Shown piece by piece: positions 5,797-52,960 of a stretch of DNA of 64,000 nucleotides. The position numbers were made by a program, and so were the translations under genes. Positions within the stretch are counted from its first letter, which is position 1, and the number at the start of each line of letters is the position of its first letter. Source of the DNA: Arcobacteraceae bacterium (GTDB lineage: Bacteria > Campylobacterota > Campylobacteria > Campylobacterales > Arcobacteraceae); NCBI GenBank assembly GCA_963662945.1, contig OY759974.1, positions 608,001 to 672,000 on the forward strand, read 5' to 3'. A model generated the notes under the pieces. That model had not been told where the DNA came from and searched no databases. It saw only the letters and a list, made by a program, of their open reading frames with translations.

Positions 5797-6210
5797 CTAT
5801 AGTGTTCCTTGTTGTATTTTTGTAAGTAAAATCGCTTAAGACGATATATGCTATGATTTGAAGCCCTTATTTTATCTAAAGGTTTGTTATGAAGTTATTA
5901 AGCCAGTGAAGTTTCACATGACATAATAATTTCTAAATATGCAGCATTTTATGGTTTACACACTTTTGCTACTTAAACTATATTGACAAATATTTAAATT
6001 GTAAAGACATTACATCGTACAAAACTAGTACAATTGAGTTTTATTCTCTATTCGCAAAAGATGCTAAAAATAAAACTATAATATTTTGAGATTTTCTGAA
6101 TATAGCGGTGGTCGAGGAGATGTTTGAACTCTTTTCTAAAATCAACAAACCCCTTAACTAAAGGGAATAAAATTAAAAAAATTCGCTCATAACTAACTGA
6201 AAACTATAAA

Positions 6211-6230
6211 TGTAGAACAATTGTTCTACA
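6211..6230. repeat. Perfect 20-bp palindrome TGTAGAACAATTGTTCTACA
   Basis: Read directly from the sequence; function unknown. Confidence 0.9.
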
Positions 6231-6354
6231 ATTTATCTCCATCTATAAGTCAATAAGACACTACTTATATGTCTACGTTCTCAAAAAGTTTGATAATTCA
6301 TCATTATTTCCTTATAATATCATATCGTAATAATTCTATATATAAATTATTATG

Positions 6355-6396
6355 TTGACTTACATCAAACTAAAAATATTAATTATAAGATAGGAT
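6355..6396 (+). promoter_or_regulatory. Crp/Fnr (Nss-type) box TTGACTTACATCAA plus -10 TAGGAT; probable autoregulation of the crp/fnr gene
   Basis: Box 6355-6368, 22-nt spacer, TAGGAT 6391-6396. Confidence 0.75.
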
Positions 6397-6402
6397 ATTA
6401 TT

Positions 6403-7065
6403 ATGACAAATATGACAGAAACTATTAAAAAAATTAACCTTTTTGCACATTTAGATGATGAGTCTTTAGAGAAATTAGCTTCGATATCTTACTTGTCAAA
6501 ATTTGATAAAGATGCTATTTTATACTATGAATCAGATTCAATAGATAAAATACTTTTTTTAATCACTGGACTTATAAAAGTGTATAAAATAGACAAATAT
6601 GATAATGAGATATTTTTATATTATATCTACCCAAACAGTATGATATCAGAGTTATCAAATCTCAATCATAATAAAATTAGGTGCTTCTCAAATACGGAAT
6701 TTGTAGAGGACAGTTTAATGCTTTCAATAGATTATAAAAAGTTTAAAGAGTTTTTTTTACTAGATAATGAACTTGCGTTAAAATTTATAGAAGAGATTAT
6801 ATACAAAAACCAACAATTACAATGTATTGTCAACCGCGAATTAGTATTTGATGCTACTTCAAAAGTTGCCTTTATGTTAGTCAATGACTTGGATATGTTT
6901 AATCAACTTAAACGAAATCAAGTAGCTTTAATGTTACATATTCAACCAGAAACCCTCTCCCGAGTTTTAAACAGACTTATGAGAAATAAAACAATAAATA
7001 TAGATAAAGGAAATGTAATCATCGAAAATATCGAAGAGTTACAAAGTATCTATTTAGGAGTATAA
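6403..7065 (+). CDS. Crp/Fnr family transcriptional regulator (Nss/Dnr-like, no Fnr-type Cys cluster)
   Basis: cNMP-like N-terminal domain (LFAHLDDESL...GLIKVYK) and HTH QVALMLHIQPETLSRVL. Confidence 0.92.
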   Translation: MTNMTETIKKINLFAHLDDESLEKLASISYLSKFDKDAILYYESDSIDKILFLITGLIKVYKIDKYDNEIFLYYIYPNSMISELSNLNHNKIRCFSNTEFVEDSLMLSIDYKKFKEFFLLDNELALKFIEEIIYKNQQLQCIVNRELVFDATSKVAFMLVNDLDMFNQLKRNQVALMLHIQPETLSRVLNRLMRNKTINIDKGNVIIENIEELQSIYLGV

Positions 7066-12964: not shown

Positions 12965-15781
12965 TTATGCTTGGTAAATTTTTACAGCACACTTTTTAAA
13001 GTCAGTTTGTTTTGACTGTGGACAAGTTGCATCAAGACAAACTTTATTGATAAATACTTTTTCATCAAACCATGGTACGAATACAAGTCCTCGTGAAGGT
13101 CGATTTCTACCTCTAGTTTCAACTCTCGCTTTTACTTTTCCTCTTCTAGATTCTACCCAACAAAGACCACCTTGTTTGAGTCCTTTTGCAGCTGCATCTT
13201 CTGGGTGTATATAACATAAAGCTTCTGGAACAGCTCTATAAAGTTCAGGAACTCTCATTGTCATAGTACCACTATGCCAGTGTTCTAGTACTCTCCCTGT
13301 ACATAACCAAGTATCGTACTCACTATCTGGTATTTCTGGTGGATCCATATATGGTCTTGCAAATATTTTAGCTTTATTTGTTAACGCTTTTTTGTTTTTA
13401 TCTTTTACACCATTTAAGTCACCATAAGGTAATGCTTTGGCTAACTTACCATAAAATGCAAACTCTGTATGTCCCGTCTCTTTTCCATATTTTTTAGCAT
13501 AAGGGTCATATTTTGCATTAAATCTCCATTGAGTCTCTTTTCCATCAACAACTGGCCATTTAAGTCCTCTTACCCTATGATAAGTATCAAAGTCTGCTAA
13601 ATCATGAGCATGTCCTCTACCAAACCATGCGTATTCTTCAAATAAGTACTTTTGGATAAAGAATCCATACCCTTTCCAAGCTTTACCGTCTGATCCTAAA
13701 ACATTTCTACTATCTCCAAAACCTTCAGTATTATCATAGCCTTTTTGGATAGGATCATTTTGATCTAGTTTATAACTTCTAGCTTCATCATTTGCAAAAA
13801 GGATATCAAACATTGTTGTATCTTCATTGTATCCCATTGCCTTTGCTTTTTCAATAATATTTGGTAATGCTTCTTTTCTTGGACCACTTGGTGCATAAGA
13901 ACCCCAAACATCTTTAACAGTAAACCTTTTTGACAATTCAACCCATTGCCAAGTATCAGACATAGCATCACCTACTGGTAAAACTTGTTGTCTCCAATGT
14001 TGTGTTCTTCTTTCCGCATTTCCATATGCTCCCCATTTTTCATAAATCATTGCAGATGGTAAAATAAGGTCACTAACTTTTGCAGAAATACCAGGATATC
14101 CATCAGATGTTACGATAAAATTATCCATCTCACGTGCAGCTTTAATCCAGTGTTTTGCTGATGCTGTATCTTGATAAGGATTACATACATTTACCCAAGC
14201 AAACTTAATAAGTCCATCTTCAATATCTCTATGGATTCTCATTATATCTTGAGTTCCAACAGGATTAATTGTACCCTCTGGTACTTTCCATCTATCTTCA
14301 GTGATTTTTCTATGTTTTGGATTTGCTACCATCATATCAGCAGGCAATCTATGACAGAACGTACCAACCTCTCTAGCAGTTCCACAAGCAGATGGTTGTC
14401 CCGTAAGTGAGAATGCACCACTTCCTGGTTTTGCTTGTTTATTCAATAAGAAGTGAACATTGTACGAAAGTGTATTTACCCATGTACCTCTTGTATGTTG
14501 GTTCATACCCATTGTCCAGAAACTTACAACTTTTCTGTCTTTTTCAATATAATATGAAGCTAATGTTTTAAGTTTTTTCTTAAACTCTTCAATATCTTCA
14601 TCAGGATTTCCTTTAGATATTTTTGCTACATAATCAAGTGTATAAGGAGCAAGAAATTTTTTATACTCTTCAAAAGAAATTTCCCAGTGAGCTAAACCTG
14701 CTGGTTTATTCTCCATTACATCACCCTCTTTATATCCAAAAGGCTCTAATGCTGGTGCTTCAGTAGCTGAAACTACTTTTTTCATCTCTTTTGAAATAGT
14801 CTCCATCTCTTTTGCTGTATATTTTCCATCTTTAAGAGCTTGTTCTCCATCTCTTCTCATACCATACCCTGTATTTACAGGTTGTGAACAGAAAATCATA
14901 TGTTTGTTTACAAAGTCCCAATCAATAGACTCTGGATGATTATACACTATCTCATGTGCGATATAGTTCCAAAGTGCCAAGTCAGTATTTGGTGTAAAAA
15001 TAATCTCGATATCAGCAAGGTCTGAAGTCCTATGTCTATATGTAGAGATATTTACAACTTTTACTCTATCTGGATCAGATAGTTTTCTATCCGTAACCCT
15101 AGACCATAAAATCGGATGCATCTCTGCCATATTTGAACCCCATGATACAACTGTATCAGTAATCTCAATATCATCATAACAACCACTTGGTTCGTCAATA
15201 CCAAAAGTTTGATAAAATCCAACAACCGCAGATGCCATACAGTGTCTTGCATTTGGATCAAAAGCATTTGATCTAAATCCACCTTTCATCATTTTTTGAG
15301 CTGCATATCCTTCCATAACAGTATATTGCCCACTTGCAAATACACCAACACCCTCTGGTCCACTCGCTTTAAGTGCTTTTTTAATGTGAATTTCCATCTC
15401 ATCAAATGCTCTTTTCCAAGATACAGGTGCAAATTTTCCATTTTTATCAAACTCACCTTTTGCATTTACTCTTAAAAGTGGTGTTTTAAGTCTATCAGCC
15501 CCATACATGATTTTTGCATTAAAGTATCCTTTAATACAATTAAGCCCTCTGTTAACAGGTGCAGCTGGGTCACCCTTTACTGCTACTATCTTACCCTCTT
15601 TTGTAGCCATCATAATTCCACAACCTGTACCACAAAATCTACAAGCTGCTTTATCCCAACGCCAACCAGCTTCAGCCGTGTTTGCAGCAGCGCTTAAATT
15701 ACTTGGTACACTCATACCAACAGCAGCAGCAGCTGAAGCAGCAGCTGAACTTTTTAGAAAGTCTCTTCTTGAAAGTGCCAT
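12965..15781 (-). CDS. napA: Periplasmic nitrate reductase catalytic subunit
   Basis: Tat signal [38 protein letters not shown]. Confidence 0.99.
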
Positions 15782-15819
15782 GTTTTCTCCTTTTTATATG
15801 TTTGTCCTTAAACAATAAA

Positions 15820-15861
15820 AGTTTAACACTATAAATAATTAATTATCTTGACCTTAGTCAA
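15820..15861 (-). promoter_or_regulatory. napA promoter: box TTGACCTTAGTCAA plus -10 TAAACT
   Basis: Box 15848-15861, 22-nt spacer, -10 at 15820-15825 on minus strand. Confidence 0.85.
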
Positions 15862-15959
15862 TTATATTAATTATTAAACCTAAACAACTAAATTTTATTG
15901 TAACAACTCTCAACTTAAGATTTTAATTTTTTAAAATTATAATTTAACAATAAATATAT

Positions 15960-16001
15960 TTGATGTAAGTCATACTTTTTTTGATTTTATTTTTATAGAA
16001 T
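15960..16001 (+). promoter_or_regulatory. Box TTGATGTAAGTCAT plus -10 TAGAAT, upstream of candidate sRNA 1
   Basis: Box 15960-15973, 22-nt spacer, TAGAAT 15996-16001; no ORF downstream. Confidence 0.75.
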
Positions 16002-16006
16002 TTCGT

Positions 16007-16076
16007 AAATTAAAAACCGCTTGTTTTTTACGGACCCTCCTAAAGTCATAAAGTTTCTTTCGGTTTTTAGTTTTTT
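16007..16076 (+). ncRNA. Candidate small RNA, copy 1 (terminal stem, CUCCUAAAGU loop)
   Basis: 13-bp stem 16007-16019/16061-16073 with U tail; homologous to 17529-17618; own promoter. Confidence 0.6.
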
Positions 16077-16165
16077 GCATATTGAACTTAAATATAATTT
16101 TATTAAGTTAAGCACTTTTATTTATTAGTGTGTGATACCTATAATAAAAAAACTTTTTTAAGAAT

Positions 16166-16603
16166 TTAATTAAGTATCCCAGCACCATCAATAGCAGTGC
16201 TTCTATCTTGGGCATACACTCTTTCACCCTTGATAATATCATATTTCCATATAGGAGCACTAGCTTTAAAGTCTTCTACAAACTCATCAATAAGCTCTAG
16301 TGCAACTCTTCTTTTTGGGCTACATACTGCTGCTATATAGGAGCTTGTATGATTTGGAACATCACCTCGACTATGAGCCATCAGTACTATTGCATTTTTC
16401 TCTTTTGCTTTTATCTGCCAAGATTCAAACCAAGAGTTTAAGATAGGCTCATAGATATCAAAACTCAAACCATCAATTCCATCTTCATCTCGAACTACTC
16501 CAACAAAAGTGATAATTGCTCCAAAATTAGAAAGTCTAAAATTGTTATACCACTTGTTTGTTATTTTTTCTACCTCTAAGCTACCATCATATAACTCTAA
16601 CAA
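16166..16603 (-). CDS. moaE: Molybdopterin synthase catalytic subunit
   Basis: FGAIITFVGVVR and FKASAPIWKY. Confidence 0.92.
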   Translation of the reverse strand: MLELYDGSLEVEKITNKWYNNFRLSNFGAIITFVGVVRDEDGIDGLSFDIYEPILNSWFESWQIKAKEKNAIVLMAHSRGDVPNHTSSYIAAVCSPKRRVALELIDEFVEDFKASAPIWKYDIIKGERVYAQDRSTAIDGAGILN

Positions 16604-16636
16604 AATTATTCCTTTTTAAATTTTAATTTTATACCT

Positions 16637-16710
16637 GAGTTTTTTATGCTAAAGCATATAAAAAAACTCCTCCTAAGTTAAAAAAGCAAAGCAGTTTGCT
16701 TTTTCTTAAC
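16637..16710. other. Double-hairpin element between moaD and moaE, related in sequence to the candidate sRNA loops
   Basis: Hairpins 16637-16669 and 16677-16710 joined by CTCCTAA. Confidence 0.6.
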
Positions 16711-16712
16711 AC

Positions 16713-16934
16713 TTATCCGCCACATACAGGAGGAAGTAAAGATACTTTATCTCCATCTTTGAGTATTTTATTTTTATCTTTTACTAAAGTGTCATTTACT
16801 GCAACTGCACTATTGTTTAACCAGCTTTTTAAATTTTCATCTTGTTTTAAAATTTCACTTAATTCATTAAGGTTTTGTATATCAACACTTATTGGTTTTT
16901 TATTGATTGGTCCTAAAAATTCTATTGTTACCAT
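16713..16934 (-). CDS. moaD: Molybdopterin synthase sulfur carrier
   Basis: AVAVND...[16 protein letters not shown] with C-terminal GG. Confidence 0.93.
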
Positions 16935-17422
16935 AATCTATCCTCCTTCTCTCTATTAAAATCTCCAGATTTTCCACCACTTTTATGTTCAAGTTGTAGA
17001 TTTGATATTATCATACCTTTATCTATTGCTTTTACCATATCATAAATAGTAAGTAATCCTATAGATACTCCTGTTAGTGCTTCCATCTCTACACCTGTTT
17101 GTCCTTTAAGTTTTGCTGTAACTGTTAGTTTAAATCCTGGCAACTCATCTAATTGTTCTACATCACAATTAATACCTGTTAGTAGTAGTGGATGGCACAT
17201 AGGAATAAGTTCAGGTGTTTTTTTTGTTCCCATAATTGCTGCAACTACTGCTGTTTGTATTACAGGTCCTTTTTTATTTTGATTTGATATTACATTTTGA
17301 AATGCAACATTGCTCATAGATATAATTCCACTTGCAACAGCAACTCTTGTAGTATCCTCTTTAGAAGAAACATCTACCATTTTGGGTCGATGGTTTTGGT
17401 CTAAATGTGTTAAGTTATTCAT
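16928..17422 (-). CDS. moaC: Cyclic pyranopterin monophosphate synthase
   Basis: [38 protein letters not shown]. Confidence 0.97.
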
Positions 17423-17480
17423 TGTTTTATCTTTCCTATTTTTTAAAACTAATCACAAAGTAAAATATTTATAATTCTCT

Positions 17481-17522
17481 TTGATGTAAGTCATAGCATT
17501 GAATATAATTTATTTATATAAT
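17481..17522 (+). promoter_or_regulatory. Box TTGATGTAAGTCAT plus -10 TATAAT, upstream of candidate sRNA 2
   Basis: Box 17481-17494 (identical to 15960 and 40439), 22-nt spacer, TATAAT 17517-17522. Confidence 0.78.
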
Positions 17523-17528
17523 GTTACT

Positions 17529-17618
17529 AGTAAATTAAAAACCGATTATTGTTCAATATCCTTGTCTCCTAAAGTTAAAGCAAAGAAGTTACAATATTTA
17601 ATTGGTTTTTAATTTCTA
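17529..17618 (+). ncRNA. Candidate small RNA, copy 2
   Basis: 17-bp stem 17532-17548/17599-17615, loop contains CTCCTAAAGT; homologous to 16007-16076. Confidence 0.62.
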
Positions 17619-17624
17619 AGGATA

Positions 17625-17951
17625 TTATTGGTATTCTATAACAGTATAAAAAATATTATCTTCTAAAAAGCACTCTTTTACTGTATAGCCATCTTTTAAC
17701 TTTAAAAATGGTTTTAAAGAGTTATTTGAAGAGACTACTAAGCGATCATTGTTTTGCAATAATGTTTGTCCAATTTGGATATTGTGTAAGATCTCTTCTC
17801 TTTGAAGATATATTCCCTCAAAACAATAATGTATACCATCTTCTTGTTTTACTTTATAAAAATCTACTGTTGTCTCAGGAAGTATAGATTTATTTGTATC
17901 TTCTACTACTCCGCCACTACATAGACAAGCTCCTGTTCCACAACTTTCCAT
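17625..17951 (-). CDS. Hypothetical protein with Cys-rich N-terminus; distant paralog of 35774..36115
   Basis: MESCGTGACLCSGG; TVDFYK...DG..Y.F shared with the 35774 protein; AAGGA RBS. Confidence 0.7.
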   Translation of the reverse strand: MESCGTGACLCSGGVVEDTNKSILPETTVDFYKVKQEDGIHYCFEGIYLQREEILHNIQIGQTLLQNNDRLVVSSNNSLKPFLKLKDGYTVKECFLEDNIFYTVIEYQ

Positions 17952-17980
17952 TTTTTATCCTTTTTTGTTAATTTTGAATA

Positions 17981-18022
17981 ATTTTAGCTTTTTTAGTATG
18001 ATTTTAAATTGACCCATATCAA
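17981..18022 (-). promoter_or_regulatory. Box TTGACCCATATCAA plus -10 TAAAAT
   Basis: Box 18009-18022, 22-nt spacer, -10 17981-17986 on minus strand. Confidence 0.85.
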
Positions 18023-18035
18023 AAATTTTTACTAT

Positions 18036-18374
18036 CTATTTTGATTCATAAAGATAAGTTGCAATTTTTTCTAAAGTATCTTTGTCGTACCCAAGCTCTG
18101 GCATAATCTCATATTTTTCTATCATATCCTGCATAATTGAGCCTTCATGAAAAGGTTTATAAACCCAATTCACCATATAATTTACAAACTCTTTTTTCTC
18201 TCCAAAAGCTTCGTGGTATCTCTGTTTTATCATTTTTAAAGAGGGTGCTGAGATATTTTTTGTTTCATGATGACAAGTGATACAGTTACCATACAAAAGT
18301 AATCTTCCATAGGAATCTGCATAACCCAAGCTTGTACTGAATAGTAGTATTAAAACTAAATGTATTGTTTTCAT
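18036..18374 (-). CDS. Monoheme c-type cytochrome
   Basis: Signal peptide, CITCH, distal MP motif. Confidence 0.85.
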   Translation of the reverse strand: MKTIHLVLILLFSTSLGYADSYGRLLLYGNCITCHHETKNISAPSLKMIKQRYHEAFGEKKEFVNYMVNWVYKPFHEGSIMQDMIEKYEIMPELGYDKDTLEKIATYLYESK

Positions 18375-18409
18375 AATATATCTTTCTCTTATTATTTTTA
18401 TTATTTATT

Positions 18410-18479
18410 ATAATATCTTAAATATAATTATTTGTAATTGACATATATCAAAAAAAAATCCATTTTTTTTCTATAAAAT
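18410..18479. promoter_or_regulatory. Bidirectional promoter with one central box TTGACATATATCAA
   Basis: Box 18438-18451; TAAAAT 18474-18479 (+) and TATTAT 18410-18415 (-), each 22 nt away. Confidence 0.8.
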
Positions 18480-18485
18480 TAACCT

Positions 18486-19097
18486 ATGAAAAAAATAAAT
18501 AGTATCAGTAATACAAGAATAAAACCAAAACTTCTAAGGGAACAAAAAACAGAAGCACTATTAGTTTTTATTCGAACTACCTTAGAGCAAATCAACTATC
18601 AAGAAAACTGTATAGAACTAGGCTCTTTGGAAGATAGAAACTATATTCAAAAAACTTTACAAGAACTACTTGAAAATCTTCAAAAATATGTTGTCAATTC
18701 TTCCTATCTTCAATACCTTATAGACAATAGTCATACAAGTAAGAAGCTTTCTATACTACTTATTACAGAAATGCCTCTTATTACTTATTATAGTGATCTT
18801 TCAAGAGTTATGAAACACAAACTACTAAGTGGAACAAGATGGATACCGCAGCTCATAGTGATAGCACTGTTAAGTGAATGGATACTAGAAGAGGAAAAAT
18901 CTATGCATCTTTACCCTTTTTTACAAAATATTGACTATCTAGATTTAATAGAAAGATATGATAAAATAAAGCAAAGTGAAACATCAAAAAATAAAACAAC
19001 AATTATGAAAATGTATAAACTATCTACACTTTTAATCCAAAAACTCAAACTTTCATCGTATAAGATAAAAAAATCTAAAAAAAAGAAAAAAAGATAA
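18486..19097 (+). CDS. Hypothetical protein with poly-Lys C-terminus
   Basis: 203-aa ORF behind a box-dependent promoter; no motif recognised. Confidence 0.7.
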   Translation: MKKINSISNTRIKPKLLREQKTEALLVFIRTTLEQINYQENCIELGSLEDRNYIQKTLQELLENLQKYVVNSSYLQYLIDNSHTSKKLSILLITEMPLITYYSDLSRVMKHKLLSGTRWIPQLIVIALLSEWILEEEKSMHLYPFLQNIDYLDLIERYDKIKQSETSKNKTTIMKMYKLSTLLIQKLKLSSYKIKKSKKKKKR

Positions 19098-32213: not shown

Positions 32214-32232
32214 TTATTTTTAACTAGGAGTA

Positions 32233-32274
32233 ATTCTATCTTATTTGAAAATATTTTAAATTGACTTGGGTCAA
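32233..32274 (-). promoter_or_regulatory. Box TTGACTTGGGTCAA plus -10 TAGAAT (nnrS)
   Basis: Box 32261-32274, 22-nt spacer, -10 32233-32238 on minus strand. Confidence 0.87.
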
Positions 32275-32299
32275 TCTAAAAAAATTTCTTGCAAGCACC

Positions 32300-36142: not shown

Positions 36143-36212
36143 AGTATAACGATTTTGAGAGGTATTATCATTGACTTATATCAACAAATATTTTATAAAA
36201 TTTGCTTACAAT
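36143..36212. promoter_or_regulatory. Bidirectional promoter with one central box TTGACTTATATCAA
   Basis: Box 36171-36184; TATACT 36143-36148 (-) and TACAAT 36207-36212 (+), each 22 nt away. Confidence 0.87.
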
Positions 36213-50905: not shown

Positions 50906-51231
50906 AAGGTACAATAAGCAATAGCTTGCAGATAATGTAAGAGGAAAGTCTGAGCTGCCGTGAAGTATGGTTCCATTTAACAAATGGCTAGGGAAACCTA
51001 AGGGATAGTGCAACAGAAAGTAAACTACCTATATTTATATAGGAAAAGGTGAAACGGTGAGGTAAGAGCTCACCAGTGTCTTAAGTAATTTAGACAGCTA
51101 TGTAAACCCAACCTGCAGCAAGAAGAGATGGTATAAGCTTCACATTTTTGGCTCTTCGCACGATTGGTTTTGTAAAAAATCAACTAGATAAATTATTGCT
51201 TACAACAAAACTCAGCTTACCGTTGTACCTT
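50906..51231 (+). ncRNA. rnpB: RNase P RNA (type A)
   Basis: GAGGAAAGTCTGAG, AGTGCAACAGAAA, GGTGAAACGG, ACAAAACTCAGCTTA; P1 AAGGTACAA/TTGTACCTT; TATAAT at 50893-50898. Confidence 0.96.
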
Positions 51232-51232
51232 T

Positions 51233-52960
51233 TTAATTTAACTGATGACTAAACTCTGGAACAATTTCTTTTAATTTACCTAATTTATCTTGTGTATTGA
51301 TAAGTTCTTCAATATCATTATTTAATTTTTCTATATCATAACTTGAACGTCCAGCAACAGTAATAGATTCATACTGTGTTTTTGCATCACTATCATTTAT
51401 AAGTAGCTCTTCATAAAGCTTTTCACCAGGTCTTAATCCTGTATATTCTATAGTTATATTATCTCTACCACTTAATTCTATCATCTTTTGGGCCAAATCT
51501 GCTATTTTAATTGGCTCACCCATATCAAGTATAAAAATTTCACCTTTTTCTCCTAAAGATGCAGCTTGTAACACTAACTCACATGCTTCAGGAATCAACA
51601 TAAAATATCTTGTAATATCTTTATGTGTTACAGTTATTGGTCCACCTGATTCAATTTGTGATTTAAACTTTGGTATCACACTTCCGCTACTTCCAAGAAC
51701 ATTTCCAAATCTTACAGCTACCATTTGTGTTTCTTTTGCATCTACATTTTGCAAATACAATTCACAAATACGTTTTGTTGTTCCCATAACATTTGTAGGA
51801 CGAACTGCCTTGTCTGTAGAGATTAATAAAAACTTCTCTACTTTAAACTTAATTGCACAGTCAATTGTATTTTTTGTTCCAATAATATTATTTACAATTG
51901 CTTCAGTGATATTATCTTCCACTAAAGGAACATGTTTATATGCTGCTGCATGTATTACTATATTTGGAGAGTATTTTTCGAATGTTTTTTCCAATAGTTC
52001 TTTATTAGATACGGATTGCATCACCATAATTGGATTATATTTTTCTAATTCTTGAGATATACTATACAAATTAAATTCACTATGATCAAGTAAAATCAAT
52101 TGTTTAGCTCCAAAATTGACACACTCTCTAGCTATCTGACTTCCAATACTTCCACCTGCACCTGTGATAAGTACCGTTTTATTTGCTATAAAACTTTTAA
52201 TTGCTGTTTTATCTAAATCTTTAGGATGTCTTGCCAATAAATCTTCAACAGAGATATCTTTTAATTGTACTGTAAAATCTTTATCTCTTAAAATTTCTGA
52301 TAAAGCAGGTAAAATTTGTACCTCTTTAAAAAATTCATGTAAATTATCATATGCATCTTTAATTTGAGATGTAGATGCACTAGGCATTGCTATAACCAAT
52401 AAATCATATTTTTGTTTATCGAGTTTTTGTTTTAACTGCATTGGAGAAAGAATACGAATACCATCTATACTTCTACCTTGAATAATCGTATCATCATCAC
52501 TAAAATACTTTACTTTATACTCTGTATTTCTAAACTCTTGTTCAAGTTTCATACCAGCTTTTCCAGCTCCGTAAACAACAACATTCTTTGTTTTTTCAAC
52601 GCGACTTCTGTTGATAATATAATAATAAACATACATAGTAAAATTTATTACAAAAATATATAAAAAAAGCTCACTAGCTAAAAATGCAAATCGTACTTCC
52701 CCATGATAATAAGGTGCATATAATAAAAAAGGAATAATATATACAAAACTTTTTAGCAAAAATGTTTTTTGCGTAGCTTTACTCCAAGAAAGAGAATAAT
52801 CCTTAAAAATTAAAAAAGAAGCAATCATACGCAAAACTATAACACTTAATACCAATTGTATATTAAATGCCGTATGAAATATAAAAAAAGTCCATCCAAA
52901 AGTAATAAAAGTAAATGCAATTATCACCAAAAAATTCAATATTCGTTTATCTAAAATCAT
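51233..52960 (-). CDS. pglF: PglF/CapD-like UDP-GlcNAc 4,6-dehydratase
   Basis: TGAGGSIGS, HAAAYKHVP, STDKAVRP, VRFGNVLGSSGSV, GLRPGEKLYEEL. Confidence 0.9.
   Translation of the reverse strand: MILDKRILNFLVIIAFTFITFGWTFFIFHTAFNIQLVLSVIVLRMIASFLIFKDYSLSWSKATQKTFLLKSFVYIIPFLLYAPYYHGEVRFAFLASELFLYIFVINFTMYVYYYIINRSRVEKTKNVVVYGAGKAGMKLEQEFRNTEYKVKYFSDDDTIIQGRSIDGIRILSPMQLKQKLDKQKYDLLVIAMPSASTSQIKDAYDNLHEFFKEVQILPALSEILRDKDFTVQLKDISVEDLLARHPKDLDKTAIKSFIANKTVLITGAGGSIGSQIARECVNFGAKQLILLDHSEFNLYSISQELEKYNPIMVMQSVSNKELLEKTFEKYSPNIVIHAAAYKHVPLVEDNITEAIVNNIIGTKNTIDCAIKFKVEKFLLISTDKAVRPTNVMGTTKRICELYLQNVDAKETQMVAVRFGNVLGSSGSVIPKFKSQIESGGPITVTHKDITRYFMLIPEACELVLQAASLGEKGEIFILDMGEPIKIADLAQKMIELSGRDNITIEYTGLRPGEKLYEELLINDSDAKTQYESITVAGRSSYDIEKLNNDIEELINTQDKLGKLKEIVPEFSHQLN

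Follow-up and report, generated by a model that had tools for sequence, protein, structure and literature searches.

Two short intergenic stretches beside molybdoenzyme and molybdenum (Mo)-cofactor genes of an Arcobacteraceae bacterium share one arrangement of promoter-like box and inverted repeat, which raises the question of whether they encode regulatory RNAs, lead into neighboring genes, or act as DNA. Positions below refer to the window, i.e., the whole stretch of 64,000 nucleotides (nt) that was analyzed (GCA_963662945.1, contig OY759974.1, 608,001-672,000 of the forward strand); the genome has 2,497,315 bases, a G+C content of 28.9%, and is 99.99% complete. A previous inspection, referred to as the sequence-only reading, took the two stretches (copies 1 and 2) for paralogous, regulator-driven small RNAs (sRNAs) with an anti-Shine-Dalgarno (anti-SD) loop. 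On balance, and with modest confidence, we favor the view that each unit is a + strand gene for a regulator-activated, base-pairing sRNA, which has a class II promoter and whose loop would block Shine-Dalgarno (SD) regions.

Layout of the two units and their promoter box

The two units are composed of the following features, in which bit scores come from an RNA-only covariance model with rough E-values.

15960-15973, + strand: regulator box of copy 1, TTGATGTAAGTCAT, one of 22 genome sites having the box, 22 nt, and TAnnnT
15996-16001, + strand: -10 hexamer of copy 1, TAGAAT, 22 nt (15974-15995) 3' of the box
16007-16079, + strand: predicted RNA of copy 1, about 70 nt, 66.2 bits, E 1.8e-8
16007-16019, + strand: 5' arm of the closing stem of copy 1, AAATTAAAAACCG, 13 base pairs (bp), 5 bases past the -10 hexamer
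16061-16073, + strand: 3' arm of the closing stem of copy 1, CGGTTTTTAGTTT
16037-16046, + strand: 10-mer CTCCTAAAGT of copy 1 with the anti-SD-like loop motif CUCCUAAAGU, unpaired probability of the CCUCC core 0.74
17481-17494, + strand: regulator box of copy 2, TTGATGTAAGTCAT
17517-17522, + strand: -10 hexamer of copy 2, TATAAT, 22 nt 3' of the box
17529-17620, + strand: predicted RNA of copy 2, about 90 nt with both ends predicted, 54.2 bits, E 3.9e-6
17532-17548, + strand: 5' arm of the closing stem of copy 2, 17 bp
17599-17615, + strand: 3' arm of the closing stem of copy 2
17566-17575, + strand: 10-mer CTCCTAAAGT of copy 2 with the loop motif CUCCUAAAGU, within a 14-nt apical loop of the minimum-energy fold

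The shared layout of box, exactly 22 nt, -10 hexamer, stem, and loop motif can be read from the sequence in every detail, and the two stem differences between the copies are U-G versus U-A and G-C versus G-U, as had been claimed. The statement that the units contain no open reading frame (ORF) requires some qualification, for mechanical ORFs of 35-40 amino acids (aa) do overlap the elements; these ORFs share no relationship between the copies, and one of them begins upstream of the -10 hexamer. The spacer and the loop, the latter being 41 nt in copy 1, have diverged between the copies, while the box, -10 hexamer, stem, and loop motif are retained. The predicted start of copy 1 is placed about 6-8 nt past the -10 hexamer, and its predicted end at the U run 3' of the stem. 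The exact 14-mer box occurs four times in the genome, and allowing up to one mismatch gives eight occurrences versus two for a reversed control pattern. The exact 13-mer of the 5' arm is found in the genome only at copies 1 and 2, which are also the only matches of the RNA-only model in the whole genome at E<0.01. On the + strand, copy 1 has a folding z-score of -2.44 and copy 2 one of -4.86, compared with -2.10 and -4.49, respectively, on the - strand; as both strands fold about equally well, folding energy alone gives no choice of strand. DNA contigs from four runs, which may include the window's own sample, span both elements without differences.

We then searched the genome for the box pattern TTGAY-N4-RTCAW (163 boxes in total) followed, after a fixed spacer of 14-30 nt, by TAnnnT. 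The 22-nt spacer yields 22 sites and the other spacers 0-15, the next best being 17 nt with 15 sites. Fourteen of the 22 sites fall inside the window. An ORF of at least 60 aa lies within 260 nt of 17 sites, and the other five are the two RNA sites and three more. Among the genes behind the boxes are napA, nnrS, nrdD, moaA, and a hemerythrin-like gene, as well as those that encode cytochromes c, a CRP/FNR-family regulator, a PAS protein, and a MOSC protein. The 22-nt spacing places the box centre at -41.5, which we take to be the position of class II activation. The proposed regulator box is hence recovered in silico as a putative regulator site with class II spacing that is common to about 20 promoters of nitrate, nitric oxide (NO), and anaerobic genes. 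Three further features concern the direction of the two promoters and their regulator.

15848-15861, - strand: separate box of napA, TTGACTAAGGTCAA, with the 22-nt spacing
18009-18022: box of ORF108, serving 17625-17951 on the - strand
6403-7065, + strand: candidate regulator of the CRP/FNR family with cNMP-binding and HTH_Crp_2 domains, having its own box at 6355-6368

Since napA and ORF108 are each equipped with a separate box, we assign those at 15960 and 17481 to the + strand as the most plausible reading; given the box at 15848-15861, transcription of napA can be explained without the one at 15960. The protein encoded at 6403-7065 has no N-terminal Cys cluster, and its recognition helix reads ETLSRVLNRL; an E--SR helix presumably fits boxes with this half-site. 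Orthologues of at least 70% identity are present in exactly the eight RNA-bearing genomes of the genus and in no others, whereas weaker relatives (50-67% identity) occur in seven other genomes of the genus, and this genome has at least two paralogues. Judged from its sequence, this protein is a candidate activator, Nss/Dnr-like and devoid of an iron-sulfur (Fe-S) cysteine cluster, among several CRP/FNR paralogues. On the - strand, the sequence 3' of the box at 6355-6368 was examined for a third RNA copy and contains no such hairpin.

Some neighboring features are described here in their own right. The palindromic boxes at 18438-18451 and 36171-36184 are each flanked on both sides by a -10-like hexamer at a distance of exactly 22 nt and lie between divergent genes, which encode 203-aa and 112-aa proteins at the former box, and MOSC and 113-aa proteins at the latter; both boxes look like bidirectional class II promoters. 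ORF108 (17625-17951, - strand), a regulon member by its own box, is located just upstream of moaC and encodes a Cys-rich protein of 108 aa that begins with MESCGTGACLCSGG and has no Pfam or NCBIfam match. Between secA and the regulator gene lies a gap of about 560 nt (5797-6354) that has no ORF of at least 60 aa and could hold another non-coding transcript. Its - strand carries a perfect 20-nt palindrome at 6211-6230 (TGTAGAACAATTGTTCTACA), a TTCCCTTTAGTTAAGGGG hairpin, and a CATCTCCTC stretch, and the gap gives no Rfam match at the gathering threshold.

Conservation of the unit and pairing of its ends

Covariance models re-find their own input sequences, only additional genomes count in the searches described below, and the E-values are approximate. 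A model comprising box, promoter, and hairpin matches eight of the 28 genomes searched in the genus, this one included. A second, family-wide model matches 14 of 151 genomes at E <=0.05, and 13 genomes in four genera remain after rejection of the match in G166, which is a plain G+C hairpin (G numbers are our handles for genomes). Searching a second of the four genera finds the unit in 4 of 11 genomes, one of which is new (G146, at a contig edge and kept outside further analysis). This genome has two copies, and each other carrier has one. The covariance searches agree with the claim of paralogy, in that the two units belong to one conserved family present in 13 Arcobacteraceae genomes of four genera. 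Two more matches were discarded, one in G227 at a contig edge lacking CUCC, and a third one of model R2 in G000, which is merely the nrdD box promoter.

Outside the family Arcobacteraceae the unit is not seen in the genomes covered. Among another 150 genomes of the order, which include 140 from 25 other families, the RNA-only model gives no real match. An exact-pattern scan over one genome per prokaryote species returns 76 matches; a box lies upstream in seven, which are exactly the Arcobacteraceae records, and the remaining 69 were dismissed as chance matches from unrelated phyla without a box. A BLAST-type search with copy 1 in 41 relatives gives mostly A/T-rich noise, G013 being the sole real match. 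As the sequence-only reading had anticipated, no Rfam family matches either element or five homologous loci. Specifically, scanning 15000-18500 at E up to 10 gives four unrelated weak matches, none on the elements and neither FnrS nor Moco among them, and the five homologous loci give no match at E up to 1. At the gathering threshold, the whole window matches only RNase P RNA (bacterial class A, 50906-51235, 244 bits).

We aligned 14 sequences, both window copies included, of which 12 are distinct; the stem has 14 pairs, giving 168 cells. All 14 loci have an FNR-type promoter of the FnrS kind in silico, with the 14-bp box exactly 22 nt before the -10 hexamer. Eleven sequences have 5 nt between the -10 hexamer and the 5' arm, the exceptions being G097, copy 2, and G054 with 6, 9, and 11 nt, respectively; the 3' arm continues into a U-rich tail. 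Pairing is found in 96.4% of the stem cells, compared with at most 68% in every slid register. Seven pairs are invariant, two vary on one side, and four have changed on both sides, for example from C-G to U-A in G013 and from A-U to C-G in G054. A covariation score of 0.180 is obtained versus 0.112 in shuffles, with 0 of 500 shuffles reaching it; since related sequences may outscore their shuffles even if no structure exists, this is support rather than proof. All seven G-U/U-G cells, which are spread over four columns, are tolerable on the promoter strand only and become A-C mismatches on the other strand, where pairing would fall to about 92% by our own arithmetic. The dedicated promoter and the G-U pairs, all of which fit the + strand only, agree with the earlier call of the + strand.

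The unpaired part is 12-67 nt long and variable in sequence except for one motif. This motif reads CUCCUAAAGU in both window copies, CUCCUAAAC, AUCCUAAAC, and CUCCUCAAC in close relatives, and CCUCCUUCUUU, CUCCUCCAAAAAU, CUCCUCCUUCUUA, and CUCUCCUCCUUUAUA in more distant ones. TCCT is invariant in the nine sequences of the genus, the loops of the other three genera contain CUCCUCC or CCUCCUU, and CUCCU/CCUCC (AUCCU in G013) is retained in all 14 sequences. The minimum-energy folds of all 14 RNAs have the ends paired and the motif in a loop. The motif has an unpaired probability of 0.69-1.0 in 13 of the 14; copy 2 was scored at another site, and its motif is in the apical loop by the fold. The 16S rRNA tail of the genome is GGAUCACCUCCUUUC, and so the loops copy its anti-SD core. 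The C/U-rich motif is therefore the conserved unpaired feature, in keeping with the anti-SD loop described before.

Genomic settings, candidate targets, and competing explanations

The 14 loci occupy several settings. Four are divergent from napA (window copy 1, G013, G009, and G006), and four are divergent from a CRP/FNR regulator gene that has its ATG about 40 nt from the box and is adjoined by a hemerythrin gene (G011, G015, G020, and G097). At five loci from two genera (G009, G043, G006, G102, and G124), an NnrS gene begins 30-45 nt past the 3' arm, the Pfam NnrS assignment being confirmed for G009, G043, and G102; with 5 of 14 loci directly upstream of nnrS, a setting that the sequence-only reading had missed, a leader role is conceivable. 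In G097, a hemD-like gene with its own TATAAT lies within about 26 nt downstream. The next downstream gene is convergent at seven loci (both window copies, G013, G011, G015, G020, and G137), and in G054 the next co-oriented gene is about 240 nt away. The elements of the G011 group are near mobB. The single nnrS of this genome is 51% identical to the RNA-linked nnrS of G009. It has its own box TTGACCCAAGTCAA, followed by 22 nt and TAGAAT (32214-32299, - strand), and its predicted short leader starts with CUCCU and has GGAG 18 nt later, immediately upstream of the ATG, and the two might act as an anti-SD/SD pair in cis. G124 (L137) has a second box, an exact reverse complement of the 14-mer, about 20 nt upstream of the RNA box and facing a divergent 470-aa gene.

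We next considered which mRNAs the loop might pair with. The genome holds 14 instances of its exact complement, ACUUUAGGAG, two of which are the elements themselves, versus two instances of the reversed control. A duplex scan covered 2,373 AGGAG sites, 331 of which resemble translation starts. The best match at a translation start is ccoN, encoding cbb3 oxidase subunit I (TIGR00780 above cut-off), with -21.6 and -18.9 kcal/mol. The ccoN start region, ACUUUAGGAGGAGAUUGAUG (C1:1070616-1070635, L143, outside the window), has a double SD sequence and an exact match of 10-11 nt to the loop. Another candidate lies between the two elements.

16668-16697, - strand: possible pairing site in the moaD-moaE intergenic mRNA, including AACUUAGGAGGAG and complementing the copy 2 loop

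This spacer pairs with about 24 nt of the copy 2 loop at -25.2 kcal/mol against a background with a mean of -13.8 (standard deviation 3.9) and a first percentile of -23.6 kcal/mol, which puts it roughly in the top 1% for a site that was found post hoc. The whole spacer (16604-16712, about 109 nt) also contains a terminator-like hairpin, a second small palindrome, and an SD-like AGGAGGAG that has no gene behind it, only ATG-CTT-TAG. Its + strand resembles the copy 2 loop (CTCCT..AAGTTAAA..GCAAAG.AGTT). DNA contigs of co-occurring relatives have 21 different letters in place of 16592-16714, with the joint running from 16591 to 16715.

Several observations weigh against a trans-acting sRNA. The five nnrS-linked loci leave no space for a second box promoter, which suggests a leader function at least there. 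The distribution is patchy, as 20 of 28 genomes of the genus are non-carriers, mostly fragmented assemblies but including G008, which is a single contig. A terminator consensus scan of 15780-17700 gives zero sites, and the A/U-rich stem with three G-C pairs and a loop of 41-67 nt makes read-through possible. Nine to ten stem positions are invariant across four genera, which is beyond the demand of pairing and could reflect a constraint at the DNA or protein level. AGGAG sites resembling translation starts have no stronger pairing than the other AGGAG sites (-10.8 versus -11.5 kcal/mol for copy 1, and -12.2 versus -12.9 kcal/mol for copy 2). Moreover, ccoN was rejected as a covarying target, since six genomes of the genus have one and the same ccoN start region but differ in the flanks of the RNA loop.

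These points bear on four competing explanations. The unit may be a 5' leader or attenuator of nnrS, with the regulator-driven transcript opening with the hairpin and extending into nnrS, and with the hairpin adjusting read-through, stability, or translation; in that case the window copies would be orphaned leaders that maybe still fire short or antisense RNAs devoid of trans function. The nnrS genes close behind the 3' arm without a second box in two genera, the nearby hemD-like gene of G097, the hint of a cis anti-SD/SD pair (CUCCU, then GGAG) in the leader of the window's nnrS, and the lack of a canonical terminator in the scanned region speak for it; nevertheless, we consider it rather unlikely. 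The seven loci with a convergent downstream gene have nothing co-oriented to lead, and the gene in G054 is remote. Orphaned leaders should decay, yet all pieces are intact in the window copies and at other orphan loci. Folding the leaders together with the nnrS starts reveals no consistent pairing between loop and SD sequence: the closing stem won in four of five cases, a 3'-arm alternative appears in G009 only, and the SD sequences there (AAAGG) match the loop poorly. The sRNA and leader roles may also coexist, with termination freeing the sRNA and read-through expressing nnrS. The RNAs of this genome could instead be cis-antisense to - strand transcripts, copy 2 to one from ORF108 into moaC and copy 1 to one from moaE towards napA, which we hold to be improbable; no less improbable is the attendant effect, that duplexes or convergent transcription uncouple or lower the expression of downstream Mo-cofactor genes. 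In its favor, moaC has no box with the 22-nt spacing, the sole box between ORF108 and moaC faces away, and ORF108 has its box at 18009-18022, so that transcription of moaCDE may pass across the complement of copy 2. The - strand hairpin folds equally well, and the moaD-moaE spacer complements the copy 2 loop. However, transcription of the - strand across the elements is an assumption, the family is kept where no such through-transcript exists (at the nnrS-linked loci and at loci divergent from the regulator gene), the G-U cells disfavor a selected - strand structure, and a conserved loop motif is superfluous for perfect antisense pairing.

The remaining two explanations take the element as DNA or as a structure of the - strand. 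An inverted repeat acting at the DNA level or selfishly, be it a bidirectional terminator, a protein-binding palindrome, or a miniature inverted-repeat transposable element (MITE) with a promoter, would explain why the arms are nearly invariant across four genera, and both window copies do lie between convergent units. An A-tract, a hairpin, and a U-tract is the layout of bidirectional terminators. We consider this very improbable, as the compensatory changes and the G-U changes point to selection for RNA pairing in one strand. There are one or two copies per genome, always linked to the box at fixed spacing, rather than the many dispersed copies of a MITE, and the divergence of spacer and loop with the functional pieces retained is unlike recent transposition. 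As for a terminator, five loci precede a co-oriented gene and hence have no convergent gene to terminate, the terminator scan is empty, and the hairpin is not compact and G+C-rich. A cis-regulatory RNA of the - strand, such as a riboswitch in the leaders of napA and moaC, is suggested by the adjoining molybdoenzyme and Mo-cofactor genes and by mobB in the G011 group, yet it is hardly credible: there is no Rfam match at E up to 10, the Moco family included, and the G-U cells are mismatches on that strand. The napA box at 15848-15861 lies between the element and napA, which places the element upstream of the predicted napA start, and homologues beside nnrS or the regulator gene have no Mo gene on the opposite strand. 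The cis element for napA and moaC, which the sequence-only reading had offered as its alternative, is weakened by napA having its own box and by the homologues away from Mo genes.

Predicted action and relation to known small RNAs

For the favored sRNA, we propose the following course of action. A CRP/FNR-family regulator of the NO- or nitrate-responsive kind, with the product of 6403-7065 as candidate, would activate the class II promoter, and the transcript would start with the first bases of the 5' arm. Its paired ends, an A/U-rich stem of 13-17 bp running into a U-rich tail, would close the molecule, and probably terminate transcription and shield the RNA from exonucleases. The large loop would present CUCCU/CCUCC, a copy of the 16S anti-SD core, pair with the SD regions of selected mRNAs, and keep ribosomes from binding, independently of Hfq. 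A search for the Hfq family (PF17209) gave no match in this genome, which is 99.99% complete, while its control matched five named genomes. The outcome would be a repressive post-transcriptional arm added to the regulon. We infer that the RNA accumulates, ends at the predicted positions, and acts in trans, ccoN and the moaD-moaE spacer being the best candidate targets. A wider proposal, which we put forward only tentatively and hold to be possible rather than likely, is that of an Hfq-independent "closed" sRNA family, so far of Arcobacteraceae only, which mimics the 16S anti-SD tail with its loop, is driven by an NO- or nitrate-responsive CRP/FNR regulator through the class II promoter design of the respiratory genes, competes with ribosomes for the strongest SD sites such as that of ccoN, turns off aerobic functions as nap, nor, and nnrS are turned on, and serves as an nnrS leader in some species.

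Several known sRNAs provide comparisons. FnrS, an sRNA of enterobacteria, depends on Hfq. According to the excerpts available of PMC8139620, it is induced under oxygen limitation and represses mRNAs dispensable in anaerobiosis, forming the negative arm of its activator's regulon. The Arcobacteraceae RNA resembles FnrS in being small and in having a promoter activated by the CRP/FNR family, activation being predicted here from the box; it differs in having no Rfam match, no Hfq found in its genome, a regulator without the Fe-S cysteine cluster, and a molecule closed by end pairing. RoxS/RsaE of Bacillus and Staphylococcus use C-rich motifs against SD sequences. They are NO-induced via a nitrate-respiration regulator and have many targets in carbon and energy metabolism, as far as the same excerpts go (PMC8139620). 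Unlike the RNA described here, which gives no Rfam match, they are under two-component control (ResDE/SrrAB) without a CRP/FNR box and belong to a different phylum. AniS of Neisseria meningitidis is anaerobiosis-induced and FNR-dependent. It is listed as a known Hfq-bound sRNA in the portion available of PMC5449619. AniS thus differs in its Hfq association and its unrelated lineage, and has no similarity to the Arcobacteraceae RNA. CJnc190 of Campylobacter jejuni and RepG of Helicobacter pylori have no detectable homology to it, the 140 genomes from 25 other families of the order being negative. Maturation of CJnc190 involves cleavage by RNase III. The predicted promoter logic of the Arcobacteraceae RNA is clear.

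On the regulator side, Nss of Wolinella succinogenes and NssR of C. jejuni are CRP/FNR-superfamily proteins of Epsilonproteobacteria that respond to nitrate, NO, or N2O by activating nap, nrf, and nos or NO-stress genes, as stated in the available excerpts (PMC8139620). The window's regulator has the same domain make-up. The sRNAs of nitrate respiration named in these excerpts are FnrS, NarS, SdsN, RprA, ArcZ, DicF, RyhB, RoxS, DenR, PaiI, and PcrZ; their hosts are enterobacteria, Firmicutes, Pseudomonas, Paracoccus, and Rhodobacter, with none from Epsilonproteobacteria and none in an Nss regulon (PMC8139620). Our literature search found no description of the RNA, although the unnamed genus-confined motifs of an Arcobacter sp. 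L survey, available in part (PMC6429828), may include a prior sighting.

Taken as a prediction, a new sRNA family of a familiar kind is well supported, with the promoter logic and the RNA-level conservation as its solid parts; the kind of finding is unsurprising, and for now it is predicted from genomes. Arcobacteraceae are abundant nitrate reducers and sulfur oxidizers in sediments and waste water. If the prediction is true, they would gain an independently arisen functional counterpart of FnrS, in a genome where Hfq was not detected. They would also offer a clean, computable regulon of about 20 promoters sharing one architecture, and a test case for how anti-SD mimic loops acquire target specificity.

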